From: Elusimicrobiota bacterium
GTDB taxonomy: Bacteria; Elusimicrobiota; Elusimicrobia; UBA1565; JACRDR01
NCBI GenBank assembly: GCA_016194745.1
Contig: JACQBA010000012.1
Coordinates: 9,165-73,164 of the forward strand
Length of the DNA stretch: 64,000 nucleotides
Direction of reading: 5' to 3'
Part shown: in pieces, positions 3,747 to 38,485 of the stretch
Layout of the letters: each line of letters begins with the position of its first letter
How positions within the stretch are numbered: the first letter of the stretch is position 1
The notes under the pieces: model-generated
Database searches by the model: none
What the model saw: only the letters and a program-made list of their open reading frames with translations
Told to the model about the DNA's origin: nothing
Program-made: the position numbers and the translations under genes

Positions 3747-5000
3747 TCAGGGAAGGCTGGACGGCCACTGGATGAGGAAGTCCGCCCAGTAGGTGCGGCT
3801 CAACAGGATGGACGTCGTCTGTAGATTGTCGCCGGTGGAGGGATCGTAATAGATGTGGGCGTGAGAGTTCGTGTTGATGTCCGCCGTGCCTTGGACGATG
3901 ACGATGCCGTGCACGAGGTCCGAGTTGCCGCCTCCGTTCGGTATCGTCAGGTTTCCTCCGATGTACAGCAGCCCTTTGATGGTCGGCGAGATGTTGTACG
4001 TCTGTCCCAGGCGGTTGTAGCCCTTGGGCGTGGTGCTGCAGTCCGTATACGGAAACGTCGCGTCGTAGGCGGTGTAGGCCGTCCAGTCGCTGCAGTATTG
4101 CTTCCACGCCTGCGGCGGGATCGTGGCGTTGTACGCCGAGAGCGCGTGCGCGTTGCCGTTGTCCCAGGACATGTTGCCCAAGATGATCACCGTGCCGTTC
4201 ATCTTGCTGCGGAAACTCGTCCAGTCGCCCTCCACGTAGAACGGTTTGCCCGAGGTGTCGTCGCAGTCGGTCGACCACGGCGTGCTCGAGGCCGGGACGT
4301 AGTACTTCATGCCGCAGGGCGCCGTCCCGCTCGCGATGGCCGAGCTCTTGTAGTAGTCGAAATCGATCGGCGGCGTCGGAGGGATGCCCGAGTAGAAGGA
4401 GTGCCACCACCAGCAGTTGGGCGTGTCGCAGTTGGGCGGCGTGGCGCTCGCGTCCTTGTCCATGCTGCTCGCGCTGAAGAAGTTCGGGTGGAGCTTATTG
4501 CCGATTGTGATCGCCTTGGGGCTGACGACCGAGCCCCATTCCACGTCGACGTTGCTGCCGCTCATCGTGACGCCGTTCTGGGCCTGGACGCCGATGTCGC
4601 CCAGCATCGCGTTGCTGTAGACGGCCCTAATGGCGCGCGTCTCCTTCTTCAGTTTGTCCTGGCCGATGCTGATGACGGTCGCCTCCTGGGTGTTGGGGCC
4701 GCTCGAGATGGAGACGCAGTAACGGCCGCCTGGGATGTCGGTGTATTGGACGTCGCACTTGAAGCCGTCGATCATGGTCCCTTTCTGGAGGTTCACCCAG
4801 GTGAGCGTAGATACGGAGATGACGAGGTAGCCCTTCTCGATGCCGGATTCGGCCTGGTGGAAGGCGGACGTACTCTGCGACTGCTTCGACGTGAACTTGG
4901 CCTCGCGTTGGGTGCTCATCACCATCACGGGGATGAGGACCGACGCGATCACCAGGACTAGAATCACGACTACCAGGATCTGCCCGCGTTCGTTTTTCAT
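3747..5000 (-). CDS. PilX-N-like minor pilin / pseudopilin-associated protein
   Basis: Internal start Met61 of ORF 3747..5180: MKNERGQILVVVILVLVIASVLIPV, a PilX_N-like ERG-x-hydrophobic helix. The remainder is Ser/Thr/Asn/Gly/Tyr/Trp-rich with Cys pairs. 1-nt overlap (TGATG) with the upstream pseudopilin gene. Confidence 0.6.
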   Translation of the reverse strand: MKNERGQILVVVILVLVIASVLIPVMVMSTQREAKFTSKQSQSTSAFHQAESGIEKGYLVISVSTLTWVNLQKGTMIDGFKCDVQYTDIPGGRYCVSISSGPNTQEATVISIGQDKLKKETRAIRAVYSNAMLGDIGVQAQNGVTMSGSNVDVEWGSVVSPKAITIGNKLHPNFFSASSMDKDASATPPNCDTPNCWWWHSFYSGIPPTPPIDFDYYKSSAIASGTAPCGMKYYVPASSTPWSTDCDDTSGKPFYVEGDWTSFRSKMNGTVIILGNMSWDNGNAHALSAYNATIPPQAWKQYCSDWTAYTAYDATFPYTDCSTTPKGYNRLGQTYNISPTIKGLLYIGGNLTIPNGGGNSDLVHGIVIVQGTADINTNSHAHIYYDPSTGDNLQTTSILLSRTYWADFLIQWPSSLP

Positions 5001-5542
5001 CAGTTCATCACCCGAATCTTCTGAATGCTGAGCTCGAGGACCTTCTTTCGGCTCAGTTGGATGTTCTTGCCCATGGTCAGCGACACGCTCACGATGGTCG
5101 GGTTGTCCGTCCTCGGGAACGAGAACGCGATGAAGACGAGGTTGCGCGTGAGAGTCGATTGGGTCGTGCCGCCCGTGCACGTGGGATAGCCGAGCGTCTG
5201 GTCCGTGCTACAGATCGACATCAGGAGGTTGGACCCGCTCTGCCAGAAGGTGATGATCTTGCTGTCGATCGTCTCGAACTGGATCTTCGAGTAGATGCCC
5301 CCGCCGCTGCCGCTGGGCGTTGAGATCACGAGGGTCGAGTCCTTGGCCTGCCGGATGAACCGGTTGACCGTGTCCAAGGCGTTGCGGGCGTCGTTTTCGA
5401 TATCGGCGCGCGCCGTCGTCATCATGAAGAAGTCGTTGAGCTTGAACAAGAGCGGCGGTCCGACGGAGGCGAGGATGCCGACGATCGCGACGGTCATCAT
5501 GACCTCCGAGAGCGTGTATCCAGTCCGCGAGCGCCGTGTCAT
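5000..5542 (-). CDS. Prepilin-type N-terminal cleavage/methylation domain protein (pseudopilin)
   Basis: MTRRSRTGYTLSEVMMTVAIVGILASV matches the class III signal (G/YTLxE plus a hydrophobic helix). 180 aa. Confidence 0.78.
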   Translation of the reverse strand: MTRRSRTGYTLSEVMMTVAIVGILASVGPPLLFKLNDFFMMTTARADIENDARNALDTVNRFIRQAKDSTLVISTPSGSGGGIYSKIQFETIDSKIITFWQSGSNLLMSICSTDQTLGYPTCTGGTTQSTLTRNLVFIAFSFPRTDNPTIVSVSLTMGKNIQLSRKKVLELSIQKIRVMN

Positions 5543-8199
5543 GGGTAGGTGATCGCCTTGTTCGTGTTCGTCGCCGCGGTCACGTTGATCCCGGAGTAGC
5601 CCTTCGTCACGACGCTGACGGTCGAGGACCCCGTCACCGTCGGAATATAGATCATGATGTTGTAGTTGGAGCCGCCGCGGACCTGGACGTCGTAGGTGCC
5701 GTCGGCCTTGGTGGAGGCGGCGTACACGACCGCTCCAAGAGCCGCCGCGGCGGTGGTGCAGGTTCCGACGGGGCTCACGCAGACGGTCGAGGGGCTCGTG
5801 GTCAAAGTGGTGGTCGACGCCAGCACGAGACCCCCGGTGGTCAAGGTGGCGCCGTTATAGGTCACCGTGCCGGTGATGTTTCCGTAGGCGCCGGCGACCG
5901 TGAAGCTGCCGGCGAACACCGTCTGCCCGTCGACGACGGTGACTCCCGTGATCTGGTACGGGTCCGAGCTCTGTCCGGTGTCAAGCGTCGGATAGACCGT
6001 GTACGTTCCCGAGGAGATGTTCTGGATATAGGCGTAGCCCGAGCTGTCCGAGGTGCCGCTGCCCGCCTCGCTGCCTCCCGCCGTGACGGCGACGACGGAG
6101 ATGTTCGGCAAGGGCGAGGTGCCGCTGGTCAAGTACGCGTAGACGACGCCGCCTAAAGTCAGGTTGAAGTCCAGGTCGGTGATGCGCCCCGTCTGCACCG
6201 TGGGATAGGCGAACGCCTGGACGTAGTTCGGATTGGCGTTGTTGACGTTGGCGATGACCGAGATCGTGCCGCTCGAGACCGCCGCGAAATAGAGGCCGTT
6301 CGTCGAGGAGGCCGTTGTCGGGACGCCGCCCGCGATCATCGAGATGGCGGGGATGATCACCTGTCCATTTACGTTGCGCACGGTCCCCTTGATGTAGCCG
6401 CCGAGGGTGAAGCTCGAGAGCATGATCCCGAAGATCGGGGAGTCGACGTTCTGATTGACGGTGACCGTGGCGGGCTGGAGGTAGTAGGTGTCGGACGCGA
6501 TGTCGATGGTCCACGCGCCCGTGCTCACGCCCGCGAGCCGGAAGGGCGCGTAGGGAAGGCTGTAGGCTCCGCTCGTGATGTACGCCGTATAGGCCACGGT
6601 CGAGCCGGAATAGGAGTCGTTGGTGCCGACGACGGCGCCGGCGCCGACGCGGCTCGTGATCGGCGGCCGGATCGCGTCGCCCGACGAACGCGGATTGTAG
6701 TTGATCCCGTACTTGGCGACGACGGAGGACGTCGCGTTCGGCGGATAGTAGAAGTCCACTTGATTGTTGTCCGAGTCGTAGGCGTGTCCGTTGTTGGCCA
6801 TCGAGGTCGCGATCGCGCTGATGGCGACGGCCGGACTCGAGATGCGGACGAACTGGTCGCCGCGCGCGAACCCGCCGCCGGCGGTCACCTGGATGCAGGT
6901 GCCCTCGCAGTACTGCGCGCCCGAGCCGGCGTTCCAGCCGACCGAATCGATCGCGCGGCCGTTGTACTCCAGGAGGACGCTCCCGCTGTGGCCGTAAGCG
7001 AGGATCGGCATGGCCGTCGGGTAGCTCCACCCCGTGGGCGAGCAGTTCGTCTGCGGGTTCGCGTAGTGAGCGTCGGCGGTAATGGTGTTTCCGTTGATCG
7101 TGAACGTCGTCGTATTCGCGTATAGGTAGTAGCCGTACGACGGCACGTAGGTGGACGTGTACACCATGTTGATGTTGAAGCAGTCCAGCGGTCCGAAGTT
7201 GCTTTGGTAGCTGAGCTCGTAGATAGGAGAGCCGCCGGACGTCGCGATATTGATGGGTGCGGTGGTCGGGTTGTAGAGCTCGACGTACTGGGCGTCGAAG
7301 CCGTTGACCTGCAGCGTGGAGGCGACGACCTGGCTGATCACAAGCTGCGTGCTGATCCACACGATTCCGCTGATCGAGCCCGAGCTGATGGGAGTGAGGT
7401 AGATGTTCCCGGCGCTGGATGTAGTGCCGGCATACGCCGATTGGATCGGCAGATAGGCGTCTTGGAAGCCCCATGAGGAAACGTGGAGCGTGTAGGACCC
7501 GTGGGCCACGCGGAAGGAGAAGCTGCCGTCGGTCGCGGAATACGTTTTGAATCCTGGATTTTCCAGAGTCTTGACGACCGCGGTCGCGAGGTTGGGCGTA
7601 CCGGTCACCTGCTGCTTTACGGTGCCGGTGAATCCGGAGTCGAGCGGGCTCACGTTCGGATTCTCGAGGAGGTTGCTCAGCGAGTATTTGCGGCGGACGC
7701 CCCCGTCGGTCCAGAGCACGTAGACCGTGATCTGCTTCAAGCCCGTGTCGGGGTAGGTGAAGGCGACTGTCGAGATTACGTTGCCGTACATCGACGCCAA
7801 CGAGACGAACACCTCACGGGTATAGGTGATGCCGCCGATCGAGATGACTTCGGGCGGATAGTTCTGGCTGTCGTAGAGGATGCCCGGGGAGATGCTGTTG
7901 TCGACGGCCGACGTGGTGGTGATGAGAAGCTGGTAGTAGGAGTTGTTCTTGAGCGTCTCGATCTTTTCTTGGGCCAAGTTGGTGGCCAGAATCCGGGTGC
8001 GCGACGTATATAGGGACATGGTGATGAGACGAAAGGAGCCGAACATGCTCACGATTCCGATCGAGATAATGGCCGTCGCGACCATCAACTCGACGAGCGT
8101 GACGCCGCGGAAATTCGGCGGAACACAGGAGAGCCCCCTTAAAAAAGCCTTAATTTTTAAGGTGGATTCAGCGCCTCGCGATGCACGGGGGGGAGTCAT
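5539..8199 (-). CDS. Giant pseudopilin (886 aa): prepilin N-terminus, carboxypeptidase-regulatory-like beta-sandwich repeats and a lamin-tail-domain-like segment
   Basis: NFRGVTLVELMVATAIISIGIV prepilin motif about 30 aa after the ATG at 8199, so the start is uncertain. Repeated GTV/GSYT..V..G segments. LVISQVVAST..DAQYVELYNPT...GSVLLEYNGRAIDSVGW resembles an LTD. Confidence 0.65.
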   Translation of the reverse strand: MTPPRASRGAESTLKIKAFLRGLSCVPPNFRGVTLVELMVATAIISIGIVSMFGSFRLITMSLYTSRTRILATNLAQEKIETLKNNSYYQLLITTTSAVDNSISPGILYDSQNYPPEVISIGGITYTREVFVSLASMYGNVISTVAFTYPDTGLKQITVYVLWTDGGVRRKYSLSNLLENPNVSPLDSGFTGTVKQQVTGTPNLATAVVKTLENPGFKTYSATDGSFSFRVAHGSYTLHVSSWGFQDAYLPIQSAYAGTTSSAGNIYLTPISSGSISGIVWISTQLVISQVVASTLQVNGFDAQYVELYNPTTAPINIATSGGSPIYELSYQSNFGPLDCFNINMVYTSTYVPSYGYYLYANTTTFTINGNTITADAHYANPQTNCSPTGWSYPTAMPILAYGHSGSVLLEYNGRAIDSVGWNAGSGAQYCEGTCIQVTAGGGFARGDQFVRISSPAVAISAIATSMANNGHAYDSDNNQVDFYYPPNATSSVVAKYGINYNPRSSGDAIRPPITSRVGAGAVVGTNDSYSGSTVAYTAYITSGAYSLPYAPFRLAGVSTGAWTIDIASDTYYLQPATVTVNQNVDSPIFGIMLSSFTLGGYIKGTVRNVNGQVIIPAISMIAGGVPTTASSTNGLYFAAVSSGTISVIANVNNANPNYVQAFAYPTVQTGRITDLDFNLTLGGVVYAYLTSGTSPLPNISVVAVTAGGSEAGSGTSDSSGYAYIQNISSGTYTVYPTLDTGQSSDPYQITGVTVVDGQTVFAGSFTVAGAYGNITGTVTYNGATLTTGGLVLASTTTLTTSPSTVCVSPVGTCTTAAAALGAVVYAASTKADGTYDVQVRGGSNYNIMIYIPTVTGSSTVSVVTKGYSGINVTAATNTNKAITYP

Positions 8200-10050: not shown

Positions 10051-12024
10051 CTAGCGCTTGCGGCGCGAGGCGGCGCGGGCCTCGTGCTCGCGCCGGATCT
10101 GTCCGAGCACGCCGGCGATCCGTCGGCGCGCCGGCTCGAACGCCTGGTTGCGCGCGAGCGCGGCGCGGTAATGCGCGAGCGCGCCCTCGCGGTCGCCCTT
10201 TTTCTCGAGCATGGTTCCGTAGGCGTATTCGGGGAGCGCGTCTTGGGGCGCGGCCGTGCGCAGCGCGCGCTCGTAGCAGACGCGCGCGTCGTCGAACTTC
10301 CCGTTGTCGCGGTAAAGCGCGCCGAGGTTGACCCACGCCTCCGTGTAGGCGGGCTCCAAGGCGACCGCCTCGCGGTACTTGTCGACGGCGCGCGCGTCGG
10401 CGCCGGTGGCGGCGAGGAACATGGCGTGCACGGCGCGCGGAGCCGGGTCCTTCGGCGAGGCGCTCTCGGCCTTGAGAAAGCTCTCCTCCGCGCGCGCGGC
10501 GTCTCCCAGCCCGGCGTAGGCGCGGGCGAGGCCGAGCCACGCCTCGGTGAAGGCTGGGCGGCGCTCGATCCCCTTCAGGAACTGGTCCGCGGCTTCGCGG
10601 AACTTCCCTTCTTCAAGGAAGAGGTTGCCGCGCACGAGACTCGCGCCCGAGTTCTGGGGCGTCCCGCGGGTCGCGGAGAAGTACAGGGAACGGTCGTCGC
10701 GCCAGTCCAGGTTGCGGCGCACCGTGCGCGCGCCGAATGCCGCGGCGACGACGAGCCCTAAAGCCACGGGCGCGGACAGCTCCAGCGCGCCGGCCGAGCG
10801 CCGCCTAGGCCAAGTCGCGGCGGCCGCCTCGGCGGCCCAGGCGGCGGCGAGCGCGACGGCGGCCGCCGCGAGGTAGAGGTAGCGCTCGGCGACGGGGTTA
10901 TAGAGCGGGATCACGTTGCTCACCGGAAGCAGCGCGGCCAGGCACCAGACGGCGGCGAACGCGAGGCCCGGTCGCCGTCGCCGCAGCGCCACGGCGGCGG
11001 CGGCGAGCGCGAGGAGACCGGCGGCGCCGGCGAGCGCGCCCGGGTCCCGCCAGGCGGCCGCGACGACCGGCGCTCGATCGACCGCCAACGCAAGCGGAAA
11101 GACGAGGAGCCCCAGATACGTGAAGGCGGCCCGGGCCATCGTCGCGGCGAGAGCCGCGCGGTCCGCGAACAGGGAATTCCACTCCCACGCGGACGGCGTC
11201 ATGATGTGTCCGCGTTCGAGACCTAGGAGAAGCGAGCCCGGTCCGGGCGCGGTCGGCATGGCGGCGGCGATGCGCTCCGCCGCGGACCGCATCGCGGAGG
11301 CGGTCTCCATCCCGCCGTAGTGGAAGCGCGTCGACCAAAAGCCCGCGTACGCGCAGCCGACGACGGCGAACGCGGCGAACGCGACGGCGCCGCGAAGCAG
11401 GCGGCCGCGCGGCGCGGGGAACAGGTACTCGACGGCCACGATCAGGAATGGAAGGGACGCCGCCATCTCTTTGGACAAGAGCGCGAGCCCGAAGGCGGCC
11501 GCCGCGCCGCCGACCAGCGCCAAGTCGCGCCTCGGCGGGGCCTCCCGCGCCCTGAGGTAGAGAAGGAGCGACGTGAGCAGGAACAGCGTCGACAGGAGGT
11601 CCGCGCGGAAGCTCACCGCGTTGACGGCCTCCGTCGCGGCGGGATGAAGGCCGAAGAGGAGCGTCCCGAGGAACGCGGGCGCCGGGGCAAGGCCGAGCCC
11701 GAGGGCCAGCGCAAAGACGAGGACCGCGTTCGCCGCGTGGAGGACCGCGCTCGTCAGATGATAGCCGCCGGGGCGTCCGCCCCACAGCGCGCGGTCGACG
11801 AGCAGCGAGCCGAGGAACACCGGGCGTTCGCCCACGAGCACCTCGTGGGTCCCGAGATAGAAGCGCGGACTCAGCAGCACGCGCAGGTTGCGGGGGGATT
11901 GGACGAAGGGATTCCCCTCGACGTAAATGTGATCGTCGCCGACGAAGCCGTTGCGCAGCGTGACCGCGTAGGCGGCCAGGATGAGGGCGGCGAGGAGCCC
12001 GGCCAAGCGCGCGTGGCGGCGCAT
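10051..12024 (-). CDS. Multi-pass membrane protein with C-terminal TPR repeats (TMTC/PMT-like architecture)
   Basis: Start at Met65 (MRRHARLAGLLAALILAAY). About 10 hydrophobic helices are followed by TPR-like repeats (AWLGLARAYAGLGD, AWVNLGALYRDNGKFDDA, GALAHYRAAL). Confidence 0.75.
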   Translation of the reverse strand: MRRHARLAGLLAALILAAYAVTLRNGFVGDDHIYVEGNPFVQSPRNLRVLLSPRFYLGTHEVLVGERPVFLGSLLVDRALWGGRPGGYHLTSAVLHAANAVLVFALALGLGLAPAPAFLGTLLFGLHPAATEAVNAVSFRADLLSTLFLLTSLLLYLRAREAPPRRDLALVGGAAAAFGLALLSKEMAASLPFLIVAVEYLFPAPRGRLLRGAVAFAAFAVVGCAYAGFWSTRFHYGGMETASAMRSAAERIAAAMPTAPGPGSLLLGLERGHIMTPSAWEWNSLFADRAALAATMARAAFTYLGLLVFPLALAVDRAPVVAAAWRDPGALAGAAGLLALAAAAVALRRRRPGLAFAAVWCLAALLPVSNVIPLYNPVAERYLYLAAAAVALAAAWAAEAAAATWPRRRSAGALELSAPVALGLVVAAAFGARTVRRNLDWRDDRSLYFSATRGTPQNSGASLVRGNLFLEEGKFREAADQFLKGIERRPAFTEAWLGLARAYAGLGDAARAEESFLKAESASPKDPAPRAVHAMFLAATGADARAVDKYREAVALEPAYTEAWVNLGALYRDNGKFDDARVCYERALRTAAPQDALPEYAYGTMLEKKGDREGALAHYRAALARNQAFEPARRRIAGVLGQIRREHEARAASRRKR

Positions 12025-12037
12025 CCGCCTTACGCTC

Positions 12038-12871
12038 TCACTCGAGCGGCCCCTCGAAGTAGAAATACGGCTCGCCGTTGGCGTGCTTTCGGCGGATCGG
12101 CATGTCGGGCCGCTTCGAGAGGGCCGAGTAGTGCGCGATGAGCGCGCGTCGCGTCGTCCCCGGGACGCGCGGGGGAGAGCCGCGATGAATGAGATTGGAA
12201 TGCCACACGAGCGCATCGCCCCGCTTCGGCAGGTACGTCTCGATCTTGGCCCGCCGCCGCGCGATCTCCTCGCGGCAGGCCGACGCGACCCAGCCCTGCG
12301 TGCGCGACGGCCACGCGGGATGGTCCTGCTCGTCGGGCGTCAGATACTGGAACACGAGGTGGCGTCGGATGGCGGGCCAGCGATGCGAGCCGGGGACGAA
12401 CTGGAACGGTCCCGAGTCCGGATGGATGTCCTCGAGCGCCATCCAGACCGCGGCGTAATGGGTGCCGACGAACGCGGGATTGAGATAGGTGTCCTGATGG
12501 AAGTCCCGTTCGGTGGAGATCCACCCCGTGAGGTTCAAGTGCAGTCCGACCGGCTCGCCGATGAGCTCGCGCAGCGCGTCCATGAGGGGCGGGTGGAGGC
12601 AGAGGTCCCGGAGTTCCTTCACGTGCACGTAGGGAGAGGGCGACCGCCACCCTCCCGGGTCCGAGTGCTTCGCTCGGACCGCCGTGTAGGCGTCGATGAG
12701 TCCGTCGGGCAGCAGTCCGGGCAGACGCACGGCGCCATGCCGCCACCACTCTCGGGCGAGCCCGCGCTTGGGCGCCGCGGCGGCGCGATCGATCGGCGCG
12801 AGCAGGTGCTTCGAGCGCACTCGGTCGGTGATGTCGGGCCAGCGGATCGCGTGTTGTTTTCCGAAGCTCAT
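12038..12871 (-). CDS. Phytanoyl-CoA dioxygenase (PhyH) family Fe(II)/2-oxoglutarate oxygenase
   Basis: WISTERDFHQDTY (H-x-D), ALEDIHPDSGPFQFVPGSH, VWHSNLIHRGS. Confidence 0.8.
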   Translation of the reverse strand: MSFGKQHAIRWPDITDRVRSKHLLAPIDRAAAAPKRGLAREWWRHGAVRLPGLLPDGLIDAYTAVRAKHSDPGGWRSPSPYVHVKELRDLCLHPPLMDALRELIGEPVGLHLNLTGWISTERDFHQDTYLNPAFVGTHYAAVWMALEDIHPDSGPFQFVPGSHRWPAIRRHLVFQYLTPDEQDHPAWPSRTQGWVASACREEIARRRAKIETYLPKRGDALVWHSNLIHRGSPPRVPGTTRRALIAHYSALSKRPDMPIRRKHANGEPYFYFEGPLE

Positions 12872-12936: not shown

Positions 12937-13674
12937 GTGCTCAAGACCGCCGCCAGACGCATCGCCGGAGACCTCGCCTACACGGACGACGCCCGAACGG
13001 CGGCCCGTCTTCGGGAGGCCAACCGCCGCCGGCATTTCCGCGAGCTGGCCGAGTCGTGGGACCTGTGGTACGAGCTCTTCTTCCACAAGGACCCGCCGGA
13101 CATGACGCGCGCGGAGTACGAGGCGCTGAGCCAGCGCGAGGCGGACCGCCTGCGGCCCTATCTCTCTCCCGAGTCCCGGTTTCTCGACCTGGGCTGCGGC
13201 GGCGGCAGAATCCTCCGCCGCGTCGCGCCCTGGTGCGCCGAGGCGCACGGAGCCGACATCTCGAACCGGGCGCTCGAGCACGCCCGGGAGGCCTGCCGGG
13301 CCCACGCCAACGTCAGGCTCCACCTTGTCGCCGATTGGACGTTGGACGTCGGCGGCCGGCCCTTCGATCTCGTCTTCTGCCACTTGATGCTGTCCCACGT
13401 GGACGTCGAGCCCGCGGTCGCCTACCTTCAGGAGGTCCGGCGCGTCCTCAAACCGGCGGGCCGTCTCGTCTTCGACCTGCCCAACCTGCTCCATCCGGAC
13501 AATCTGTCCGGGCTCCTGCGGCCCGAGAGCTCCAACTGGCCGAGCCCGCACCGCCACCGCTACTGGACCGAGGAGATGGCCCGCGCGGTGTGCGGCGCGG
13601 CCGGATTCTTCGTGGAGGAGATCGCCGCCGGGCGGTTTCTCGAGATTCGCGCCTCCAGGGCGCAGCCGTCTTAA
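12937..13674 (+). CDS. Class I SAM-dependent methyltransferase
   Basis: FLDLGCGGGRILRRV motif I, FDLVFCHLMLSHV, LKPAGRLVF. GTG start. Confidence 0.8.
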   Translation: MLKTAARRIAGDLAYTDDARTAARLREANRRRHFRELAESWDLWYELFFHKDPPDMTRAEYEALSQREADRLRPYLSPESRFLDLGCGGGRILRRVAPWCAEAHGADISNRALEHAREACRAHANVRLHLVADWTLDVGGRPFDLVFCHLMLSHVDVEPAVAYLQEVRRVLKPAGRLVFDLPNLLHPDNLSGLLRPESSNWPSPHRHRYWTEEMARAVCGAAGFFVEEIAAGRFLEIRASRAQPS

Positions 13675-13683
13675 TGTTATAAT
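13675..13683 (+). promoter_or_regulatory. Extended -10 element (TGTTATAAT) ahead of the PqqD/rSAM operon
   Basis: TGTTATAAT lies immediately after the methyltransferase stop, 44 nt before the GTG at 13728. That GTG has an SD (GGGAGGA). Confidence 0.3.
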
Positions 13684-13727
13684 CCCGCCGACGTCGAGCA
13701 GCGATCACCGATCGGGAGGACACCGCC

Positions 13728-14015
13728 GTGGCCGAGAAAGCGACGCTCAGCAAGGGCACGTGGAAGCACAGCCGCCGCATCGCCTGGCGGAAAGTGGGCG
13801 ACGAGGCGATCATCTTGGACGTGGAGACCGCGGTCTACTTCTCCCTGAGCGGGGCCGGGCTCCGGATGTGGGAGCTTCTCGGCGAGGGACGCGCGGCCGC
13901 CGAGATCGCGGGCGTCCTCGCGGAGGAATTCGACGCGGATGAGGACGAGTTGGCGGAGGACTGCGCCGAGCTTGCCGCGAAGCTGCAAAAGGAGCGGCTG
14001 ATCGAGCGGGCGTGA
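13728..14015 (+). CDS. PqqD-family protein (RiPP-recognition-element-like peptide chaperone)
   Basis: IAWRKVGDEAIILDVETAVYFSLSGAGLRMWELLGEGRAAAEIAGVLAEEFDADEDELAEDCAELAAKL fits the PqqD pattern (W..v.de.vl.d...g.y..Ln..g..iW.ll). Confidence 0.8.
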   Translation: MAEKATLSKGTWKHSRRIAWRKVGDEAIILDVETAVYFSLSGAGLRMWELLGEGRAAAEIAGVLAEEFDADEDELAEDCAELAAKLQKERLIERA

Positions 14016-15331
14016 TCGTCTTCGTCGATCCGCCCAGCCCGCCCGGGTTCATCGCGTTCCGTCACTCCCACGGCGGCTACGGGGAGTGCTGCAAGACCAG
14101 CCGTCTCAAGTTCCCGACCCTGGACCTGTTCCATTCCGCCTCGCTCCTGCTCGACCGGGGCTACGCGGCGTCCGTCGTCGACTCCGTCCTTCTCGATCAC
14201 GGAATCGACCAGTGCGTCGACGCGGTCCTGTCGAAGCGGCCCGAGGCCGTCGTGCTGCGCACGGCGTCCGGCTCCTGCCCGCACGATCTGGAGACCGCCC
14301 GCGCCCTCCGGCGGCGCTTCGACGGTCCGATCGTTTTCTACGGCCCGCACGCCGAGGTGGAAGCCGACGCGATCCTGAAGTCCGGCCCGGTGGACGCCGT
14401 CTTGTACGGCGAGGCCCCGTTCCCATTCCTCGACCTGGCGGAGAGGAGGCGCGTCGAGCGGCTCGCGTCCTTTCGCTCGCGTCGCATGACGCGGGCGCCG
14501 GCCAAGGCCTCGATGCCCGACGTGGACGCGCTCCCGATCCCGCGGTGGGACCTGGTGGACTACCGCAAGTATTCCTACGTCACCGCGCAGACCAGCTGGG
14601 GCTGCCCATTCCGCTGCGGCTACTGTCCGTACCCCGTCACTCAGGGCGAGGCGTGGCGCGCGCGCTCCGTCGCGTCGGTCGTCGAGGAGTTCGAGGCGCT
14701 GCGCGACCGCTACGGGCTGCGCTTCGTCCTCCTGCGCGACCCCGAGTTCACGCTGGACCGCGAGCGGACGCAGGCGCTGTGCCGGGCGCTGATCCGGGCG
14801 GGCGTCCCGATCACCTGGGGCTGCGAGACGCGGCTCGACACGCTCGACGACGCGCTCGCCGCGCTGATGGCGGAGGCCGGCTGCATGCGCGTCGCCTTCG
14901 GCGTCGAGACGATCCACGAGCCGGCGCTCAGGGCCATGGGGCGCAAGTCCCCGCGACCGGCCGAGATCCGGGCGAAGGTCGAGGGACTCAAGCGCCTCGG
15001 GATGCTCACCTACGCGATGTACATCGTCGGTCTGCCGGGCGAGACGGCGGAGAGCGCGCGCCGGACGGCCGAGTTCGCGCTCGAGTTGGACACGAACGCG
15101 GCCTCGTTTTCGATGGCGACGCCGTTTCCCGGCACGAGGCTCGAGGCGCTGGGACGCGAGCGCGGCGCGACCCAAGCGGAGGACCCGCTCCATCTGACGG
15201 GCTGCGTGCCGTCGATGCGCACCGAGACGCTGAGCATGAACGAGGTCGAGAGGCTCTATTTGTCGGCGAAAGGATCATGGAACGGACGAAAGCGAGACGC
15301 GCGGTCATCCGCGCCTTCAAGCCGTCTCTAG
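14012..15331 (+). CDS. B12-binding-domain radical SAM enzyme (class B)
   Basis: GTGA-coupled to the PqqD gene. An N-terminal Rossmann-like B12-binding region (VVLRTASGSCPHDLETARALRRRF..IVFYGPHA) is followed by SWGCPFRCGYCPYP (CX3CX2C). No Cys-rich SPASM tail. Confidence 0.85.
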   Translation: MIVFVDPPSPPGFIAFRHSHGGYGECCKTSRLKFPTLDLFHSASLLLDRGYAASVVDSVLLDHGIDQCVDAVLSKRPEAVVLRTASGSCPHDLETARALRRRFDGPIVFYGPHAEVEADAILKSGPVDAVLYGEAPFPFLDLAERRRVERLASFRSRRMTRAPAKASMPDVDALPIPRWDLVDYRKYSYVTAQTSWGCPFRCGYCPYPVTQGEAWRARSVASVVEEFEALRDRYGLRFVLLRDPEFTLDRERTQALCRALIRAGVPITWGCETRLDTLDDALAALMAEAGCMRVAFGVETIHEPALRAMGRKSPRPAEIRAKVEGLKRLGMLTYAMYIVGLPGETAESARRTAEFALELDTNAASFSMATPFPGTRLEALGRERGATQAEDPLHLTGCVPSMRTETLSMNEVERLYLSAKGSWNGRKRDARSSAPSSRL

Positions 15332-16404
15332 GCGAGTGCGAAGGGGACGCCCTGCGCGAGGCCGTGTCGAGCGGCTGGCTTGGGACGGGCATCTACACGC
15401 GGCTGTTCGAGTCGGCGCTGTCGAGGGACGTCGGCGGGCGCAGCGTCCTCGCGACGAACTCCGGGACGGCGGCGCTGCACCTGGCGCTCGCGGCCATGCG
15501 CGTCGAGGGAGGAGAGGTCCTCACGACCCCCGTCACCAGCGTCGCGACGAGCCACGCCATCTTGTACAACCGCGCCTTTCCTGTTTTCTGCGACGTGGAC
15601 CCGGAGACCGGGAACATCGACCCCGGCGCGATCGAGGCCTCCGTCACCCGGCGCACCCGAGCGATCGTGGTCGTCCACCTGGGCCACGCGTGCGACATGG
15701 ACCGCATCCTCGAGATCGCGAAGGCGCGCCGGCTCCTCGTGTTGGAGGACGTCTGCGCCTGCCACGCGGTGGGAGGCTCCTATAACGGGCGACCGCTCGG
15801 CACGATGGGAGACGCGGCGTGCTTCAGCTTCGGGCGCTTCAAGGGGCTCACCACGTTGGACGGCGGCGCGGTCGCCTGCGCCCGGGCGGAGTGGACCGAG
15901 CGCATGGTCCGCCTGCGCCGCATGGGCCACGGGGAGCGGGACGGCCGGATGGCGGAGGGCGAAGGCGGCGTCGAGGAACTGGGCTTTCACTACCGAATGA
16001 ACGATCTCGCGGCGGTGCTGGGACTCAGCCAGCTCCGGCGGCGGGGAGAGATCCAAGAGCGGCTCGACGAGATTCTGAGGATCTACGCGGACGGCTTGTC
16101 GGGCGTCTCGTTTCTGCGCGCGCCCAAGGCCGAGGCGTACTCGCGGGGCGTGCGCGCCTACGCCGCGTATCGGGTCCTCGGAGGACGGCGGGACGCGCTG
16201 CGCCGGCATCTCGCGGACCGCGGGATAGAGGTCAACGACGTCCTCTTTCCCAATCATCGCTACGCGCTCTACCGGCGCCATCGGCGGAAGCTGCCGGCCG
16301 CGGACCGCTTCTGCGCCGAGATGCTGCACCTGCCGTTCTACCCGGGTCTTTCCGACGGCGACGCCGATCGCGTCGTCGACACGATCCGGAAGTTCAGGGG
16401 ATAG
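15277..16404 (+). CDS. DegT/DnrJ/EryC1/StrS-family PLP-dependent aminotransferase
   Basis: Internal ATG with an AAAGGA SD; overlaps the rSAM 3' end by 55 nt. Motifs NSGTAALHLAL, PVTSVATSHAILY and CFSFGRFKGLT (candidate PLP lysine). Confidence 0.85.
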   Translation: MERTKARRAVIRAFKPSLGECEGDALREAVSSGWLGTGIYTRLFESALSRDVGGRSVLATNSGTAALHLALAAMRVEGGEVLTTPVTSVATSHAILYNRAFPVFCDVDPETGNIDPGAIEASVTRRTRAIVVVHLGHACDMDRILEIAKARRLLVLEDVCACHAVGGSYNGRPLGTMGDAACFSFGRFKGLTTLDGGAVACARAEWTERMVRLRRMGHGERDGRMAEGEGGVEELGFHYRMNDLAAVLGLSQLRRRGEIQERLDEILRIYADGLSGVSFLRAPKAEAYSRGVRAYAAYRVLGGRRDALRRHLADRGIEVNDVLFPNHRYALYRRHRRKLPAADRFCAEMLHLPFYPGLSDGDADRVVDTIRKFRG

Positions 16405-16412
16405 GGGGACGA

Positions 16413-16523
16413 ATGCCGTCCAAGAAGCCGAAGAAAGCCGCCGCCAAGAAGCGCGGCAAGAGAAAATACCAGAAGCCGGACCTGGTGAAGCACGGCGTCC
16501 TGTCGATCATCGAAGGCGACTAA
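16413..16523 (+). CDS. 36-aa Lys-rich small peptide (candidate precursor peptide)
   Basis: MPSKKPKKAAAKKRGKRKYQKPDLVKHGVLSIIEGD. An AGGGGGA SD sits 5 nt upstream, and the gene starts 9 nt after the DegT stop. 31 of 35 third positions are G/C, matching genome coding bias. The stop is 7 nt before a 30-bp-stem hairpin. Confidence 0.5.
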   Translation: MPSKKPKKAAAKKRGKRKYQKPDLVKHGVLSIIEGD

Positions 16524-16530
16524 CCCCGCC

Positions 16531-16615
16531 GGTGCCAGGTTTTCACTAATTCTCCTAACTCTCCTAATTCTCCGAAAGTTAGGCGAGTTAGGAGAATTAG
16601 TGAAAACCTGGCACC
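16531..16615. repeat. 85-bp low-GC palindromic repeat, copy 1 (MITE/REP-like)
   Basis: ggtgccaggttttcactaattctcctaact (16531..16560) is the perfect reverse complement of 16586..16615. A 25-nt centre has inner cctaa/ttagg pairing. Identical at 84 of 85 positions to 38401..38485. Confidence 0.92.
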
Positions 16616-17653: not shown

Positions 17654-18835
17654 ATGCGCGTCGCGCTCGCTTGGATCGACATGGAGGATCCCACCGACCG
17701 CGCCGTCGCGCTCGGCCTGGGCCGCGCGCTGCGCCGCCGGGGCCACGCGGTCTGGCTCGTCGGACCGAGGCGTCGTCCCGGCGAGAAGGCCGCCGAGAGG
17801 ATCGGGACCTTCCCGGTGCGGCGCTTCGGAGGCTCGGCCGCGGCGCTCGAGCTCGCGCGGTTCTCTCGGGAGGCGTCGATCGACGTCTGGCATTTCCACA
17901 TATTCGCCCGCGATCACGCCGCGCTCGCCCGCGCCGCGGCCGCGGGGAAATGGCCGCGCGTCGTCACGCCCCATCTCGTGCTCGAGGATTATCTCCCGTT
18001 CGCCGGAGGCGAGGCGGGGTTCCGGCGGCTCGCGGAGGGCGCGTCGGGCCTGACGGTCGTGTCGCGCGCGTCGCGCGAGGAGCTCGTGTCCCGCTTCCCG
18101 GAATGGAAGGGCCGCGTGTCGGTCGTTTATAACGGGGCCGACGCGGCGGAGGCCCGAACGTCGCCCGTGGGCCGCGCCGCGCCGTTCGTGCTCAACGTGG
18201 GCCGCATCGCGCCGTACAAGGGCCAGGACGTCCTCATGATGGCCTTCGCCAAGGCGCTGGAGCGCAGGCCTGGCCTGCGCCTCGTCGTGTGCGGGCGCGA
18301 TCAGACGCGCGGAGGCCTCGCGGCGCTCGTGCGCTCGCTAGGGCTTGGCGGGCGCGTGCGGCTGAGCGGCGGCAGGGCGCCCTCGCACGTGCGCCGGCTC
18401 CTGCGCCGCGCCCAGTTCCTCGTCTTGGCGTCCCGCCGCGAGAATTTTCCCCTCGTGCTCCTCGAGAACATGAGGGCCGGCAAGGCCGTCGTCGCGACGA
18501 AGGTGGGCGGCGTGCCGGAACTCGTGCGCCACGGCGTCGAGGGGCTGCTCGTGCCGCCCGGGGACGTCGGCGCCATGGCGGCGGCCGTCGAGTCCTTGAG
18601 CCGCGACGGCGCGCTGCGCGCTAGGCTCGGCGCGGCGGCGCTCGAGCGGAGCCGGCGCTTCACGTGGGACCGCGCGGCCGAGGCGTACGTCCGGCTCTAC
18701 GCTCAGGCGAGGGTAAGACGCTTGAGCTCGGGCGGGATCCTCTTGAAGAAGAAGGCGTCCCAGGCGCCGCCCGCGAGGCCGGCCCGCAGGGACGCGAGCC
18801 GCCCCGGGATCCCCGTGGGACCGAGAAGCGCGTGA
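17654..18835 (+). CDS. Glycosyltransferase family 4
   Basis: MRVALAWIDMED start (Met10 of the ORF), RRENFPLVLLENMRAGKAVVATKVGGVPE, RFTWDRAAEAY. The low-complexity tail overlaps the convergent GT2 gene by 133 nt. Confidence 0.85.
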   Translation: MRVALAWIDMEDPTDRAVALGLGRALRRRGHAVWLVGPRRRPGEKAAERIGTFPVRRFGGSAAALELARFSREASIDVWHFHIFARDHAALARAAAAGKWPRVVTPHLVLEDYLPFAGGEAGFRRLAEGASGLTVVSRASREELVSRFPEWKGRVSVVYNGADAAEARTSPVGRAAPFVLNVGRIAPYKGQDVLMMAFAKALERRPGLRLVVCGRDQTRGGLAALVRSLGLGGRVRLSGGRAPSHVRRLLRRAQFLVLASRRENFPLVLLENMRAGKAVVATKVGGVPELVRHGVEGLLVPPGDVGAMAAAVESLSRDGALRARLGAAALERSRRFTWDRAAEAYVRLYAQARVRRLSSGGILLKKKASQAPPARPARRDASRPGIPVGPRSA

Positions 18836-19629
18836 TCCGGCCGGCGTCGTCGCAGCTCGCCTAGCATGATCGGCAGGAACCCCGCCTCGTCCCGCAGCGT
18901 CCGCTCCAGATAATCCTTCGGCCGGGCGGCGAGCGCGTGGCGTTGGCGATAGCGGACCCACACGTTCGGATGCGCCGCCACCGGCCAGCGCAGGGCGAGA
19001 TTCCACATGAGGAACTGGTCTTCGTACAGTGGAAAGCGCCGCGCCGCATCCTCGAACTCCGCGAGACCCAGCAGGCGCGAGGTCTTGACGAGCGAGCAGC
19101 TCGTGCGCGGCACCGTCGCGTAGCCGCTGCTCAGGAAGTTCTGCAGGAGCTCCCCCGGACGAAATGCGCGCCGGGAGAGGGACGGCATCGCGTGGACGTA
19201 GTGGCGCGCGCCTTCGAGGTCGTCCGGGAACCAATAGGACGCTGGGCCGTAGCTCAGCGCGGCGCCGCGCGCGGCGGCTTTCGTCCAGAGGGCGAGGTGG
19301 CCTTCGAGATATTCGGGGTCCCATAGATCGTCCGCGTCCAGGAGGGCGACGACCGGCGCCTTCGCGGCGCGCGCCCCGCTCATGCGCGCCGCGAAGGCGC
19401 CCCGCCGCGCGGGATGCTCGAGGAGACGGACCGCCTCGGGCCGTCCGCGGGCGAACGCCGCCGCCGCGGCGGGACCCGCGTCGGTCGAACCGTCGTCGAC
19501 GAGAAGGAGCTCCCAGTCGGTCCGAGTCTGGGCGGCCACCGACGCGAGCGTCTCGGCGAGCGTGCGCTCGGCGTTGTAGTACGGGATCACGATCGACACG
19601 GCGGGAGCGGGAGGGCTCTTCGCGCTCAT
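18703..19629 (-). CDS. Glycosyltransferase family 2
   Basis: Start at MSAKSPPAPAVSIVIPYYNAERTL; LLLVDDGSTD; LDADD. ATGA overlap with the upstream gene. Confidence 0.85.
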   Translation of the reverse strand: MSAKSPPAPAVSIVIPYYNAERTLAETLASVAAQTRTDWELLLVDDGSTDAGPAAAAAFARGRPEAVRLLEHPARRGAFAARMSGARAAKAPVVALLDADDLWDPEYLEGHLALWTKAAARGAALSYGPASYWFPDDLEGARHYVHAMPSLSRRAFRPGELLQNFLSSGYATVPRTSCSLVKTSRLLGLAEFEDAARRFPLYEDQFLMWNLALRWPVAAHPNVWVRYRQRHALAARPKDYLERTLRDEAGFLPIMLGELRRRRPDHALLGPTGIPGRLASLRAGLAGGAWDAFFFKRIPPELKRLTLA

Positions 19630-20273
19630 GCCTCGGGTTCCGTGACGTCCAGCCCTTCCGCGCTCGAGCACCCGGCGAGTCCGACGCTTCTCAGGAGGGC
19701 CGTTCGGGACGCGACCGCCGCGTAGTCCTGATAGCGGAGCTGGGTCTTGTGCTTGCGGATCGCCGCGAGCTTCTTGGCGAACACGCGCGAGACGTCCACG
19801 AGCGCGGACGCCGGCTGAAGATAGCAGACCTCGTAGCGGCAGTCGTGGAAGCGGCGGGGACGCGCCTCGGCCGCGCTCTCGAAGCCGCGCGCGAGGGCGC
19901 GATGGTCGGGATGCGGATCCTTCGCGGAGGGACGGTAGACGACGTCGGGCGCGTACTCGGCCAAGAGCGTCTTGAGCCGCCGCGAGAGGCCGCGCGCCCG
20001 GGCGAGCCGTCCGTCCGGGAACTCCCAGAACTCGGCCGACGCGGCGCCGAGGACGCGGCACGCTTGCCGGGCCTCGTCCCGCCGGAGCGCCCGATAGTCC
20101 TTGCCGCGAAAGTAGCCCTTCGGATCTCCGGCCGCGCCGTCGGTCGCGATCACGACGTGGACGCGGTCGCCCCGGTCCGCGTGGAGCGCCACGACTCCGC
20201 CGCAGCCGATCGATTCGTCGTCGGGATGCGGGGCGAGGACGAGGACCTTCCCGCGCGGCGGCGTCCAGCGCAT
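19626..20273 (-). CDS. PIG-L/LmbE-family deacetylase
   Basis: VLVLAPHPDDESIGCGG, HPDHRAL. Start at MRWTPPRGK (Met55 of the ORF). Confidence 0.85.
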   Translation of the reverse strand: MRWTPPRGKVLVLAPHPDDESIGCGGVVALHADRGDRVHVVIATDGAAGDPKGYFRGKDYRALRRDEARQACRVLGAASAEFWEFPDGRLARARGLSRRLKTLLAEYAPDVVYRPSAKDPHPDHRALARGFESAAEARPRRFHDCRYEVCYLQPASALVDVSRVFAKKLAAIRKHKTQLRYQDYAAVASRTALLRSVGLAGCSSAEGLDVTEPEA

Positions 20274-20995
20274 CAGCGGCTCCCGGCGGCGCGCGCCGTC
20301 TTCGCCGCGTCGAGCCAATGGACGCAGTCCCGCGCCTGCCCCGACTTGCGGATGACCCATTGGAGCCCGACGCGCTCGAAGGCGAAGCCGTTGTCGCGCG
20401 TGAAGCGGTCGACCGCGTCGCGCACGCTCGGCCAATCGTAGTCGTCCCCGAACAGGACGCCCCGGTCCGTGACGAGCGGCCAGTAGTTCTGCAGGTCGGA
20501 GAGGACGTCGTCCTCGTCGTGGCTTGCGTCGATGTAGACGAGTTCGGCGCGGACGCCGTTCTTACGCAGCCACTTGGCGGCGATCGTCGAGGTCTGCGGA
20601 AAGGGGATGACGATGTCCCGGAGCCCGGCGCGCACGACGTTGGCGAGGAACTGGTAGTACACGGACGGATATCCGTGCCGCAGGCCGAGGGACTTGTAGC
20701 GCGTCTCATCGCCCGGGTCGGTCCAGAACTCGAGCGCTCCGAGCCAGGTGTCGACGCACAAGAGCTTGCCGGGCGGAGTCTGCCGCTTCAGGCGCGAGCC
20801 CATGAACACCGCGGAGGCGCCCTTCCAGGACCCTACCTCGATGGCGAGCGTCGGGCGGGACTCGTCGATGAGGGCGTGGAGGTTGGGCTCGGTGCTTCCC
20901 CAGCCCTGGAGGTCCTCGGGATAGGGCCCCGGATCGAAGCCGGCGTACGGGTCGGCGGCGTGTATGCGGCCGAGCAGTTCCTCCGCGCTCATCAT
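20273..20995 (-). CDS. Class I SAM-dependent methyltransferase (TylF/Methyltransf_24-like)
   Basis: LAIEVGSWKGASAVFM, LVYIDASHDEDDVLSDL, GVLFGDDYDW. Confidence 0.7.
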   Translation of the reverse strand: MMSAEELLGRIHAADPYAGFDPGPYPEDLQGWGSTEPNLHALIDESRPTLAIEVGSWKGASAVFMGSRLKRQTPPGKLLCVDTWLGALEFWTDPGDETRYKSLGLRHGYPSVYYQFLANVVRAGLRDIVIPFPQTSTIAAKWLRKNGVRAELVYIDASHDEDDVLSDLQNYWPLVTDRGVLFGDDYDWPSVRDAVDRFTRDNGFAFERVGLQWVIRKSGQARDCVHWLDAAKTARAAGSR

Positions 20996-36865: not shown

Positions 36866-36907
36866 GACGCTGGTGCCTTGACGCTGGTGCCATGACGCTG
36901 GTGCCAG
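36866..36907. repeat. 3 x 14-nt tandem repeat of the palindromic-element terminus
   Basis: gacgctggtgcctt / gacgctggtgccat / gacgctggtgccag. The last unit is the left tip of repeat copy 2. Confidence 0.8.
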
Positions 36908-36986
36908 GTTTTCACAAATTCTCCTAACTCGCCTAACTCTGGCCGAAAAGTTCGGTGCTCTAGGAGCGTTAGTGAATACCCGGCAC
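36900..36986. repeat. Palindromic repeat, copy 2 (degenerate)
   Basis: The left arm ggtgccaggttttcacaaattctcctaact has 1 mismatch to copy 1. The right arm is decayed (ctaggagcgttagtgaatacccggcac). The centre has a ccgaa-aag-ttcgg stem. Confidence 0.7.
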
Positions 36987-38362: not shown

Positions 38363-38400
38363 GAGAGAACCCTATTATACCAGGCGAACGCCGCTGTTCT

Positions 38401-38485
38401 GGTGCCAGGTTTTCACTAATTCTCCTAACTCTCCAAATTCTCCGAAAGTTAGGCGAGTTAGGAGAATTAGTGAAAACCTGGCACC
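38401..38485. repeat. 85-bp low-GC palindromic repeat, copy 3
   Basis: Differs from copy 1 by one central substitution (ctccaaattc vs ctcctaattc). Perfect 30-bp arms. Confidence 0.92.

Follow-up and report, generated by a model that had tools for sequence, protein, structure and literature searches.

Gene organization of the locus

The subject of this analysis is a 64,000-nt stretch of an Elusimicrobiota genome (contig JACQBA010000012.1; 68% GC), hereafter called the window, and within it a compact set of genes that centres on a 36-aa open reading frame (ORF), a PqqD-family protein and a radical S-adenosylmethionine (SAM) enzyme, abbreviated here as rSAM. The original prediction, made from the letters of the window, had taken this set as a candidate pathway for a peptide of the ribosomally synthesized, post-translationally modified class (RiPP). 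The features of the set, together with two sugar-type enzymes encoded downstream of it, are as follows.

12937-13674 (+): class I SAM methyltransferase (Methyltransf_25, E = 2e-18)
13675-13683 (+): extended -10-like box TGTTATAAT, read in the sequence
13728-14015 (+): PqqD-family RiPP recognition element (RRE), 95 aa (PF05402, E = 2.9e-14)
14012-15331 (+): AprD4-like rSAM, 439 aa (PF04055; CPFRCGYC, that is, CX3CX2C; no SPASM)
15277-16404 (+): DegT/DnrJ/EryC1-type pyridoxal phosphate (PLP) sugar aminotransferase, 375 aa (PF01041, E = 6e-86)
16413-16523 (+): 36-aa precursor-like peptide MPSKKPKKAAAKKRGKRKYQKPDLVKHGVLSIIEGD, preceded by GGGGGA
17654-18835 (+): glycosyltransferase (GT) of family GT4, MshA/BshA/PimA-like (Glycos_transf_1, E = 2e-36)
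19626-20273 (-): PIG-L/LmbE-family N-acetylglucosamine (GlcNAc) de-N-acetylase, BshB-like (PF02585, E = 2.3e-34)

On the plus strand, the order is methyltransferase, PqqD, rSAM, DegT and the 36-aa ORF, and these genes are tightly packed. Pfam and NCBIfam matches bear out the gene set as it had originally been read, including a PhyH-type oxygenase gene that is transcribed divergently beside it. The GTG start of the rSAM gene overlaps the TGA stop of the PqqD gene (GTGA), a coupling that is seen at almost all of the loci described below; this feature, the CX3CX2C motif and the lack of a SPASM domain had all been predicted. The DegT gene had been recognized correctly as well, as had its 55-nt overlap with the rSAM gene. 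The spacer between the DegT stop and the ATG of the peptide gene at position 16413 is 8 nt, however, and not 9 nt as first stated.

Conservation of the module

Orthologous loci were retrieved by scanning 185,579 species genomes with a profile of rSAM orthologues. In this way, we obtained 14 genome loci, all from Elusimicrobia or unclassified metagenome-assembled genomes, with rSAM identities of 51-67%; together with the window, they make up the 15 genome loci that were compared. Co-occurrence was read from gene clustering of the 15 loci, from tblastn and from gene-call tables. The occurrence of rSAM at 15/15 loci follows from the fact that the loci were fetched with the rSAM profile. PqqD was found at 15/15 loci, each time immediately 5' of rSAM. 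In other words, both genes are present at 14/14 orthologous genome loci, and every locus of sufficient length has PqqD. The PqqD gene is also kept in a variant locus, L070, and none was found at 36 loci of more distant rSAM homologues. As for the other partners, GT4 was found at 14/15 loci, GT2 genes at 13/15 (gene clustering) and DegT orthologues at 12/15.

When metagenomes were scanned at the DNA level for the peptide, 11 contigs came up, and in nine of them module genes adjoin the match. Contig L065 proved to be a chance match within an unrelated ORF, and no module gene is visible on the 1.7-kb contig L068. The carriers of the peptide family are groundwater Elusimicrobia.

The 36-aa peptide

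The peptide consists of a variable Lys-rich N-terminus, a central motif, Y19-x-x-P22-x-L24-x-x-x-G28, and an invariant VLSI(I/V)EGD tail that is followed directly by the stop codon. At 13 of the 14 orthologous genome loci there is a short ORF that ends in KHGVLSI(V/I)EGD, and the fourteenth contig stops short of the site. A profile search of 5.8 billion proteins yielded ~98 homologues with lengths of 33-57 aa, none of which is named. Their C-terminus, [KQ]HG[VIT]LS[IV][VI]EGD, is nearly invariant, and their Lys-rich N-terminus varies. The short ORF that had been proposed as a precursor gene is thus conserved at syntenic loci. The division into leader and core that accompanied this proposal was roughly right overall, with GVLSIIEGD standing as the invariant part.

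Across the 14 loci, the codons of the invariant G, V, L, S, E, G and D residues show third-position synonymous differences only, and the stop codon may be TAA, TGA or TAG, at a position that never shifts. These two features indicate that the gene is translated and that purifying selection acts on a product whose C-terminus is fixed. The gene itself changes its place, as it follows rSAM, follows DegT or stands in a group of GT genes another 3.5 kb along, but it always stays within the locus. Judged from its sequence, the small ORF is a genuine translated gene, far beyond chance. Its small length, its Lys-rich composition, the lack of a match in Pfam or NCBIfam and its omission from some annotations might be expected of a chance ORF or of a decaying, functionless remnant of a lasso precursor. 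However, ~98 homologues share an invariant C-terminus of 9-11 residues, codon changes are confined to synonymous ones, three different stop codons occupy one position, and the gene moves within the locus yet remains linked to PqqD. These observations leave a chance or remnant ORF with next to no probability, and we regard it as ruled out.

The peptide profile was also run with HMMER, exhaustively, against 1.84 billion cluster representatives. No wider peptide family was found in this set, and the search returned the present family, a few lasso-like peptides and one sibling. The sibling peptide, MAKKAPTKKTRKRKYARPSFKKHGVLSLTSVDAYY, has the same leader and another tail (contig L074, 2.5 kb; positions 1996-2512). 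The N-terminus of an apparent B12-binding-type radical SAM protein begins 22 nt after it.

A lasso-type leader and its chaperone

The original identification of the product of 13728-14015 as an RRE is upheld by the PF05402 match and by the PDB, in which the top match is the lasso chaperone TbiB1 (5v1u, E = 2e-9). The two top NCBIfam models are lasso PqqD families, both of which score under their cut-offs. By these matches, the protein is closest to a lasso-B1-like stand-alone RRE.

The peptide in turn carries what such a chaperone would recognize. Its centre, KK(Y/W)xKPxLxKHG, is the canonical lasso leader pattern YxxPxLxxxG, and the lasso model NF033528 gives weak matches in 6/14 peptides. 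A stretch of 13 residues, KKAYKKPKLVKHG, is common to one family member and two weak outgroup matches, and the latter two peptides are followed by a gene for an Asn-synthase-type lasso cyclase. The polybasic stretch had earlier been taken as the recognition element. Given the conserved lasso-type motif, YxxPxLxxxG is the likelier one.

It has been reported that YxxPxL occupies positions -17 to -12 of lasso leaders (PMC10368454). In this numbering, our peptide terminates exactly at core position +1, which is the C-terminal Asp, and there is therefore no space for a lasso core. A segment of ~15-25 residues that starts with Gly, Ala, Ser or Cys and has Asp or Glu at position 7-9, as is expected of a lasso core, is not present. 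Genes for the lasso B2 (transglutaminase-like) and C proteins were found neither in the conserved clusters of the 15 loci nor in the Pfam results for the neighbourhood of the window, and the possibility of a hidden lasso cluster was ruled out on this basis. The general attributes of a RiPP system are present, namely a conserved short precursor beside modifying enzymes and a PqqD-like recognition element.

The radical SAM enzyme

The NCBIfam models that score best on the rSAM are AprD4 (172 bits; cut-off 500) and HpnJ (146 bits; cut-off 578). Residues 3-415 align with residues 10-424 of the AprD4 structure 6fd2 (E = 1e-41 with the single sequence and 9e-67 with a profile), at an identity to AprD4 of 26-30%. 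The AlphaFold2 model (pLDDT 94) gave AprD4 as the top Foldseek hit, with TM-scores of 0.83/0.81 versus 0.71/0.56 for TsrM, and the N-terminal Rossmann-like domain also matches that of AprD4. Alignment and predicted fold together indicate that the rSAM is a full-length AprD4 homologue of a related clade, not an AprD4 equivalog.

The enzyme had previously been labelled as a class-B, B12-binding rSAM that would C-methylate the peptide. The first part of this label holds only partly, because the B12-binding domain PF02310 is undetected in the window rSAM, although a precomputed match is listed for some orthologues, and because AprD4, the homologue that matches best, binds no cobalamin (PMC12931638). 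The second part finds no support, given the full-length similarity to AprD4 (E = 1e-41, TM-score 0.83) and the distance to peptide C-methylases. Models of C- and P-methylases (PoyC/rSAM_ocin_1, TsrM, PhpK, KedN5 and others) score far under their cut-offs, for example TIGR03975 (49 bits vs 282) and TIGR04428 (60 bits vs 500), and the RiPP B12-rSAM ApyD is a weaker match, at 110 bits. A class-B C-methylase is thus unsupported as the identity of this enzyme.

AprD4 is a radical SAM 1,2-diol dehydratase that acts on the glucosamine ring of paromamine (PMC5461906). HpnJ is a putative rSAM, assigned through a knockout, for which the conversion of bacteriohopanetetrol (BHT)-glucosamine into a cyclitol ether has been proposed, after the action of the GT HpnI and the deacetylase HpnK (PMC13459092). 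No AprD3-type reductase was recognized at the locus, where DegT stands instead. Among the rSAM homologues that lack PqqD, the nearest (36% identity) belongs to a glycan locus of the ordinary kind, which has epimerase/dehydratase, flippase and GT genes. This glycan locus, in a related genome, also encodes a 936-aa B12-binding radical SAM protein that is split by an intein with a LAGLIDADG-like domain (L054, 18080-20890).

Sugar-type enzymes of the module

The best PDB matches of the GT4 protein are MshA, PimA and BshA, which are enzymes that place GlcNAc or mannose on small alcohol acceptors. Its orthologues form a clade of ~30 proteins with 42-57% identity, beyond which similarity falls sharply, and they are encoded on the same contigs as the rSAM and the peptide. 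At six loci (L004, L005, L006, L010, L012 and L070), the start of the GT4 gene overlaps the stop of the peptide gene or lies within 12 nt of it. With a clade as small as the peptide family, GT4 is, as far as phylogeny and gene order indicate, a dedicated member of the module.

For the PIG-L protein, the nearest NCBIfam model is BshB1, and the metal-ligand motifs HPDDE and DPHPDH are intact. Homologues with 42-58% identity were found at L001, L003, L005, L014, L060 and L070, besides the window, as an accessory that often accompanies the module. Members of this family deacetylate conjugates of GlcNAc with an aglycone, including the teicoplanin peptide aglycone and N-acetylparomamine (PMC4101496).

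DegT resembles the 4-aminotransferases of keto sugars. The nearest NCBIfam models, all of them under cut-off, are PseC, ArnB and DesI, and in the PDB, TlmJ, perosamine synthetase and ArnB match best; the PLP lysine has its aligned counterpart in the lysine of FSFGRFKGLTT. The original prediction had mentioned a glycan locus as a competing explanation for the whole cassette. The glycan-type enzymes are indeed there (GT4, PIG-L and the sugar-ring relatives of the rSAM), but they appear to be integral to the module rather than an alternative to it.

Variant loci

At L070 (8213-11867), an rSAM of the SPASM/twitch type (477 aa), unrelated to the AprD4-like one, is divergent from PqqD, peptide and GT4, and PIG-L is convergent. 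PqqD, peptide, GT4 and PIG-L thus occur together there, and no AprD4-like rSAM lies within 10 kb. At L060 (755-3985), both types of rSAM flank the peptide gene.

In the subclade formed by L008, L009 and L011, the peptide gene lies among GT2 genes. At L008 (also L053; 15951-19848), three genes come after the peptide gene, encoding an rSAM of 344 aa, a paralogue of DegT (441 aa) and an rSAM of 514 aa in which a B12-binding domain is clear; two of the three are likewise found in the fetched flank of L009, and two in that of L011. These downstream genes form a second tailoring block.

Proposed pathway and alternative explanations

Taken together, the locus very probably encodes a genuine and so far undescribed chaperone-dependent peptide module. 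It points to a pathway of peptide modification, in which a tailored amino sugar may be assembled on the peptide. The enzyme families match a known series, in which a GT is followed by a PIG-L-type deacetylase, an rSAM acting on the glucosamine ring, and amino/keto tailoring. The simplest reading takes the peptide as the aglycone. The order of GT, deacetylase and rSAM is known for the conversion of paromamine to lividamine and has been proposed for hopanoid glucosamine; the chaperone-peptide pair is the one element that has no counterpart in these pathways. By analogy, we tentatively propose that the peptide carries, as aglycone, a GlcNAc-derived sugar on which GT4, PIG-L, the chaperone-guided rSAM and DegT act in succession, and we give this proposal somewhat less than an even chance.

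In the proposed pathway, PqqD would bind the YxxPxL leader and hold the peptide, and GT4 would move GlcNAc or a similar sugar onto the invariant Ser of the tail. PIG-L would then strip the acetyl group. The AprD4/HpnJ-like rSAM, docked on PqqD, would take a hydrogen from the sugar ring and perhaps carry out a diol dehydration that gives a keto-deoxy sugar, the ketone of which DegT would transaminate. The methyltransferase, further GTs and other rSAMs may decorate the product as variable accessories. The peptide would then have the aglycone role that 2-deoxystreptamine has for AprD4, bacteriohopanetetrol for HpnJ, and inositol or malate for MshA/BshA.

A further-reaching version can be imagined, in which a lasso-derived leader and chaperone deliver a glycopeptide to an AprD4/HpnJ-like rSAM that builds an aminoglycoside-like deoxy-amino sugar, the product being a conserved envelope glycopeptide of housekeeping type in Elusimicrobia and not a variable antibiotic. 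We consider this version possible but rather unlikely. The tail has remained invariant while the enzymes diverged to ~50% identity. This is suggestive of a conserved function in the cell, not of a metabolite shaped by an arms race.

Several points weigh against the peptide as aglycone. The case for glycosylation of the peptide consists of gene linkage and analogies between families, and an identity of 26-30% to AprD4 fixes neither substrate nor reaction of the rSAM. PIG-L occurs within the fetched flanks of only 5/15 genome loci, or 7 of ~19 loci examined, and DegT is absent or replaced by a paralogue in L008, L009, L011 and L070. The SPASM/twitch rSAMs of L070 and L060 belong to a type whose usual targets are peptide residues themselves. 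A protease or exporter that would account for the fate of the product was not found in the gene clusters conserved across the 15 loci. GT4, GT2 and DegT genes are common in any envelope glycan locus, and since the whole region is one, part of the linkage could be neighbourhood conservation. In addition, we know of no precedent for a radical SAM enzyme that is guided by a recognition element and acts on a peptide-attached sugar.

We weighed two other explanations against the peptide as aglycone. The PqqD-guided rSAM might alter the VLSIVEGD tail directly, by C-methylation, epimerization or another change of Val, Leu or Ile, or by chemistry on Glu-Gly-Asp, and the sugar enzymes would then be syntenic neighbours or late decorators. 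We regard this as doubtful, but much of the architecture would suit it: the PqqD/rSAM overlap with a conserved leader is the standard RiPP arrangement, the aliphatic tail resembles the substrates of peptide C-methylases and epimerases, and core position +1, at which RRE-bound leaders present their substrate, is taken by the C-terminal Asp. L060 and L070 even have a SPASM/twitch rSAM, related to peptide maturases, beside the peptide gene. The PF02310 matches of some orthologues and the similarity to ApyD point in the same direction, although PF02310 is undetected in the window protein and the ApyD match, at 110 bits, is the weaker one. However, the closest characterized relatives of the rSAM, in both sequence and fold, act on sugars, the tail has none of the residues (Cys, Tyr, Trp) on which rSAM cross-links are usually built, and an invariant core is atypical of RiPP natural products. 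A GT4 clade that is as narrow as the peptide family, and translationally coupled to it, is also hard to credit to neighbourhood alone.

In the other explanation, the AprD4-like rSAM and DegT would make a deoxy-amino sugar on a nucleoside diphosphate (NDP) or lipid carrier for the neighbouring GTs, and the PqqD-peptide pair would be a non-substrate accessory, such as a basic subunit, an activator or a membrane tether. DesI and DesII are a known sugar-deoxygenation pairing of a DegT aminotransferase with a radical SAM enzyme, and the combination of DegT and rSAM at our locus resembles it. DesII has been described elsewhere (PMC11434129). The glycan loci of the rSAM homologues without PqqD, with their epimerase/dehydratase, flippase and GT genes, the GT2 genes, rhamnosyl-O-methyltransferase-like gene and ABC (ATP-binding cassette) transporter of the window, and the lack of a conserved protease or dedicated exporter would also fit such a pathway, and an invariant tail would suit a protein-protein interface. 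Even so, we judge it improbable. To our knowledge, every characterized PqqD-family protein binds peptides that are then modified, and the leader motif of the present peptide is the one recognized by lasso chaperones. Moreover, L070 keeps the PqqD-peptide pair with an unrelated rSAM, and the pair is therefore not simply a subunit of the AprD4-like enzyme.

Promoter, hairpin and neighbouring genes

The extended -10 box of the original prediction is real. A TATAAT-type box is found 15-45 nt 5' of the PqqD start in 14/15 loci, regardless of the upstream gene, which places a transcription start between methyltransferase and PqqD; the box in the window is the probable promoter of the PqqD-rSAM-DegT-peptide unit. 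Its conservation suggests sigma-70-like promoter usage in these Elusimicrobia. The methyltransferase gene, which lies upstream of the box, has full-length orthologues (42-49% identity) at only three of the 14 genome loci (L004, L006 and L014), with a weak partial match in L001 and a match of 35% in the metagenome contig L063. Judged from this distribution, it is a variable accessory. Other features near the module are listed below.

5539-8199 (-): 886-aa protein with an N-terminal prepilin-type methylation motif (PF07963) and CarboxypepD_reg/LTD-like domains
10051-12024 (-): multi-pass membrane/TPR protein with a C-terminal OGT-like TPR domain (TPR families)
12038-12871 (-): PhyH-type Fe/2-oxoglutarate oxygenase (PF05721, E = 1e-17)
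16531-16615 (no strand): palindromic repeat similar to repetitive extragenic palindromes or miniature inverted-repeat transposable elements, with a 38-bp stem (free energy -86 kcal/mol, z -13)

A hairpin had been predicted to cap the peptide gene. It is present, with a stem of 38 bp rather than 30 bp, but it belongs to a dispersed repeat of ~85 bp, perfect or near-perfect in its palindrome and AT-rich relative to the 68% GC genome, of which the window has three copies (16531-16615, ~36895-36985 and ~38400-38485). A cytochrome P450 gene (37001-38362, minus strand; PF00067, E = 3e-95) lies between two of the copies, and two short-read contigs with the cassette end exactly at the first copy. No hairpin follows the peptide gene at the orthologous loci. 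A dedicated attenuator or terminator of the peptide gene was ruled out because the repeat is dispersed and unconserved at these loci; here, the hairpin probably acts as a terminator between convergent genes and is not specific to the cassette.

For the PhyH gene, tblastn gave no match in the orthologous genome loci or in the metagenome contigs tested, and PhyH was ruled out as a module partner because it is unconserved at the 14 genome loci. PhyH and the methyltransferase separate the membrane/TPR gene from PqqD in the window. Orthologues of the membrane/TPR protein occur at no fewer than nine loci, on the upstream side of PqqD, and its N-terminal domain has no sequence match in Pfam or the PDB. 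Orthologues of the 886-aa prepilin-motif protein lie upstream of the module in L012, L013 and L014.

A P-loop protein of ~335 aa that resembles HPr kinase is encoded 5' of PqqD at 8/15 loci (L002, L005, L006, L008, L009, L012, L013 and L014; the L002 copy at 3962-4972, minus strand), and the window has no such gene. HPr-kinase-like enzymes of lasso clusters phosphorylate precursors together with B1. By analogy, the present protein could be a further peptide-directed tailoring enzyme. Its similarity to TIGR04355 and PF07475 is weak (E ~1e-3), and we kept it out of the evidence.

Further downstream, the segment 18703-26890 contains GT2 genes, an ABC-transporter ATPase domain (~21.8-23.2 kb) and a 702-aa double GT2, as well as a Methyltransf_24/rhamnosyl-O-methyltransferase-like gene at 20273-20995 (minus strand). 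This segment looks like an ABC-transporter-dependent glycan pathway.

Implications

If the peptide is indeed an aglycone, RiPP logic would extend to sugar biosynthesis on a peptide, and radical chemistry under RRE guidance would be seen for the first time on a sugar instead of an amino-acid residue. The AprD4-like clade would then have a role beyond aminoglycoside pathways, and leader/chaperone pairs would prove portable between unrelated enzyme classes. The source phylum has almost no experimental biochemistry, and the module provides a ready test case, with a peptide of 36 aa, an invariant tail of eight residues, four to six enzymes and ~100 natural variants.

Comparison with known systems

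The original prediction had recognized no described RiPP class in this combination, and our searches agree. No NCBIfam model (June 2026) reaches its cut-off for the peptide, the PqqD protein or the rSAM. We found no literature description of the module under its tail sequence, Elusimicrobia RiPPs, AprD4 with RiPP, or RRE with GT4, which is not in itself proof of novelty.

An analogy with daptides had also been drawn, as these share with the window a precursor with an aminotransferase and a methyltransferase. It does not hold, because the methyltransferase is present at only 3/14 loci, on which ground a daptide-like aminotransferase/methyltransferase pair was ruled out, and because the aminotransferase is of the DegT sugar type and the peptide ends in Asp, whereas daptides end in Thr. 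The daptide_MTase model gives a weak generic match (26.6 bits vs a cut-off of 175). We know of no daptide cluster with an rSAM or PqqD.

The resemblance to lasso peptide systems (TbiA/TbiB1) lies in the leader motif YxxPxLxxxG, with equal spacing, and in the stand-alone PqqD, which is nearest to TbiB1. However, neither the window nor the orthologous loci have a B2 protease or an Asn-synthase-like cyclase, the peptide lacks the Thr at position -2, and the chaperone of the module is coupled to a radical SAM enzyme.

The pathways of pyrroloquinoline quinone (PQQ; PqqA/D/E) and mycofactocin (MftA/B/C and MftF) likewise bring together a small peptide whose C-terminus is strongly conserved, a chaperone of the PqqD family and an rSAM, and mycofactocin is glycosylated. 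The rSAMs of these pathways are of the SPASM type and have Tyr/Glu or Val-Tyr as their targets, whereas the rSAM of the module is AprD4-like and the tail has no aromatic residue. The module also has no conserved equivalent of the PqqF or MftE peptidase, and the PQQ_PqqD and mycofactocin models score far under cut-off on its proteins.

In the HpnI/HpnK/HpnJ pathway, a GT adds GlcNAc, a deacetylase frees the amine and an rSAM is proposed to rework the glucosamine ring, a series that our module would share. The differences are the score (146 vs 578 bits), the lack of hopanoid genes nearby, and the presumed aglycone, which would be a peptide and not a lipid. The apramycin step of AprD4/AprD3 is the other close parallel. 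The rSAM homology extends over the full length, our locus has GT4, PIG-L and a sugar-type aminotransferase, and the same families, a GlcNAc transferase and a BtrD-type deacetylase, build the glucosamine ring on the aglycone in paromamine. Nevertheless, the identity is 26-30% and the score 172 vs 500 bits, no AprD3-type reductase was identified in the module, which has no aminocyclitol genes either, and its PqqD and ribosomal peptide occur in no aminoglycoside pathway. Peptide maturation by an RRE-dependent rSAM is already well known; we found no description of the present recombination, in which a lasso-type leader and chaperone come with an rSAM related to glucosamine-ring enzymes, a GT, a deacetylase and an aminotransferase.

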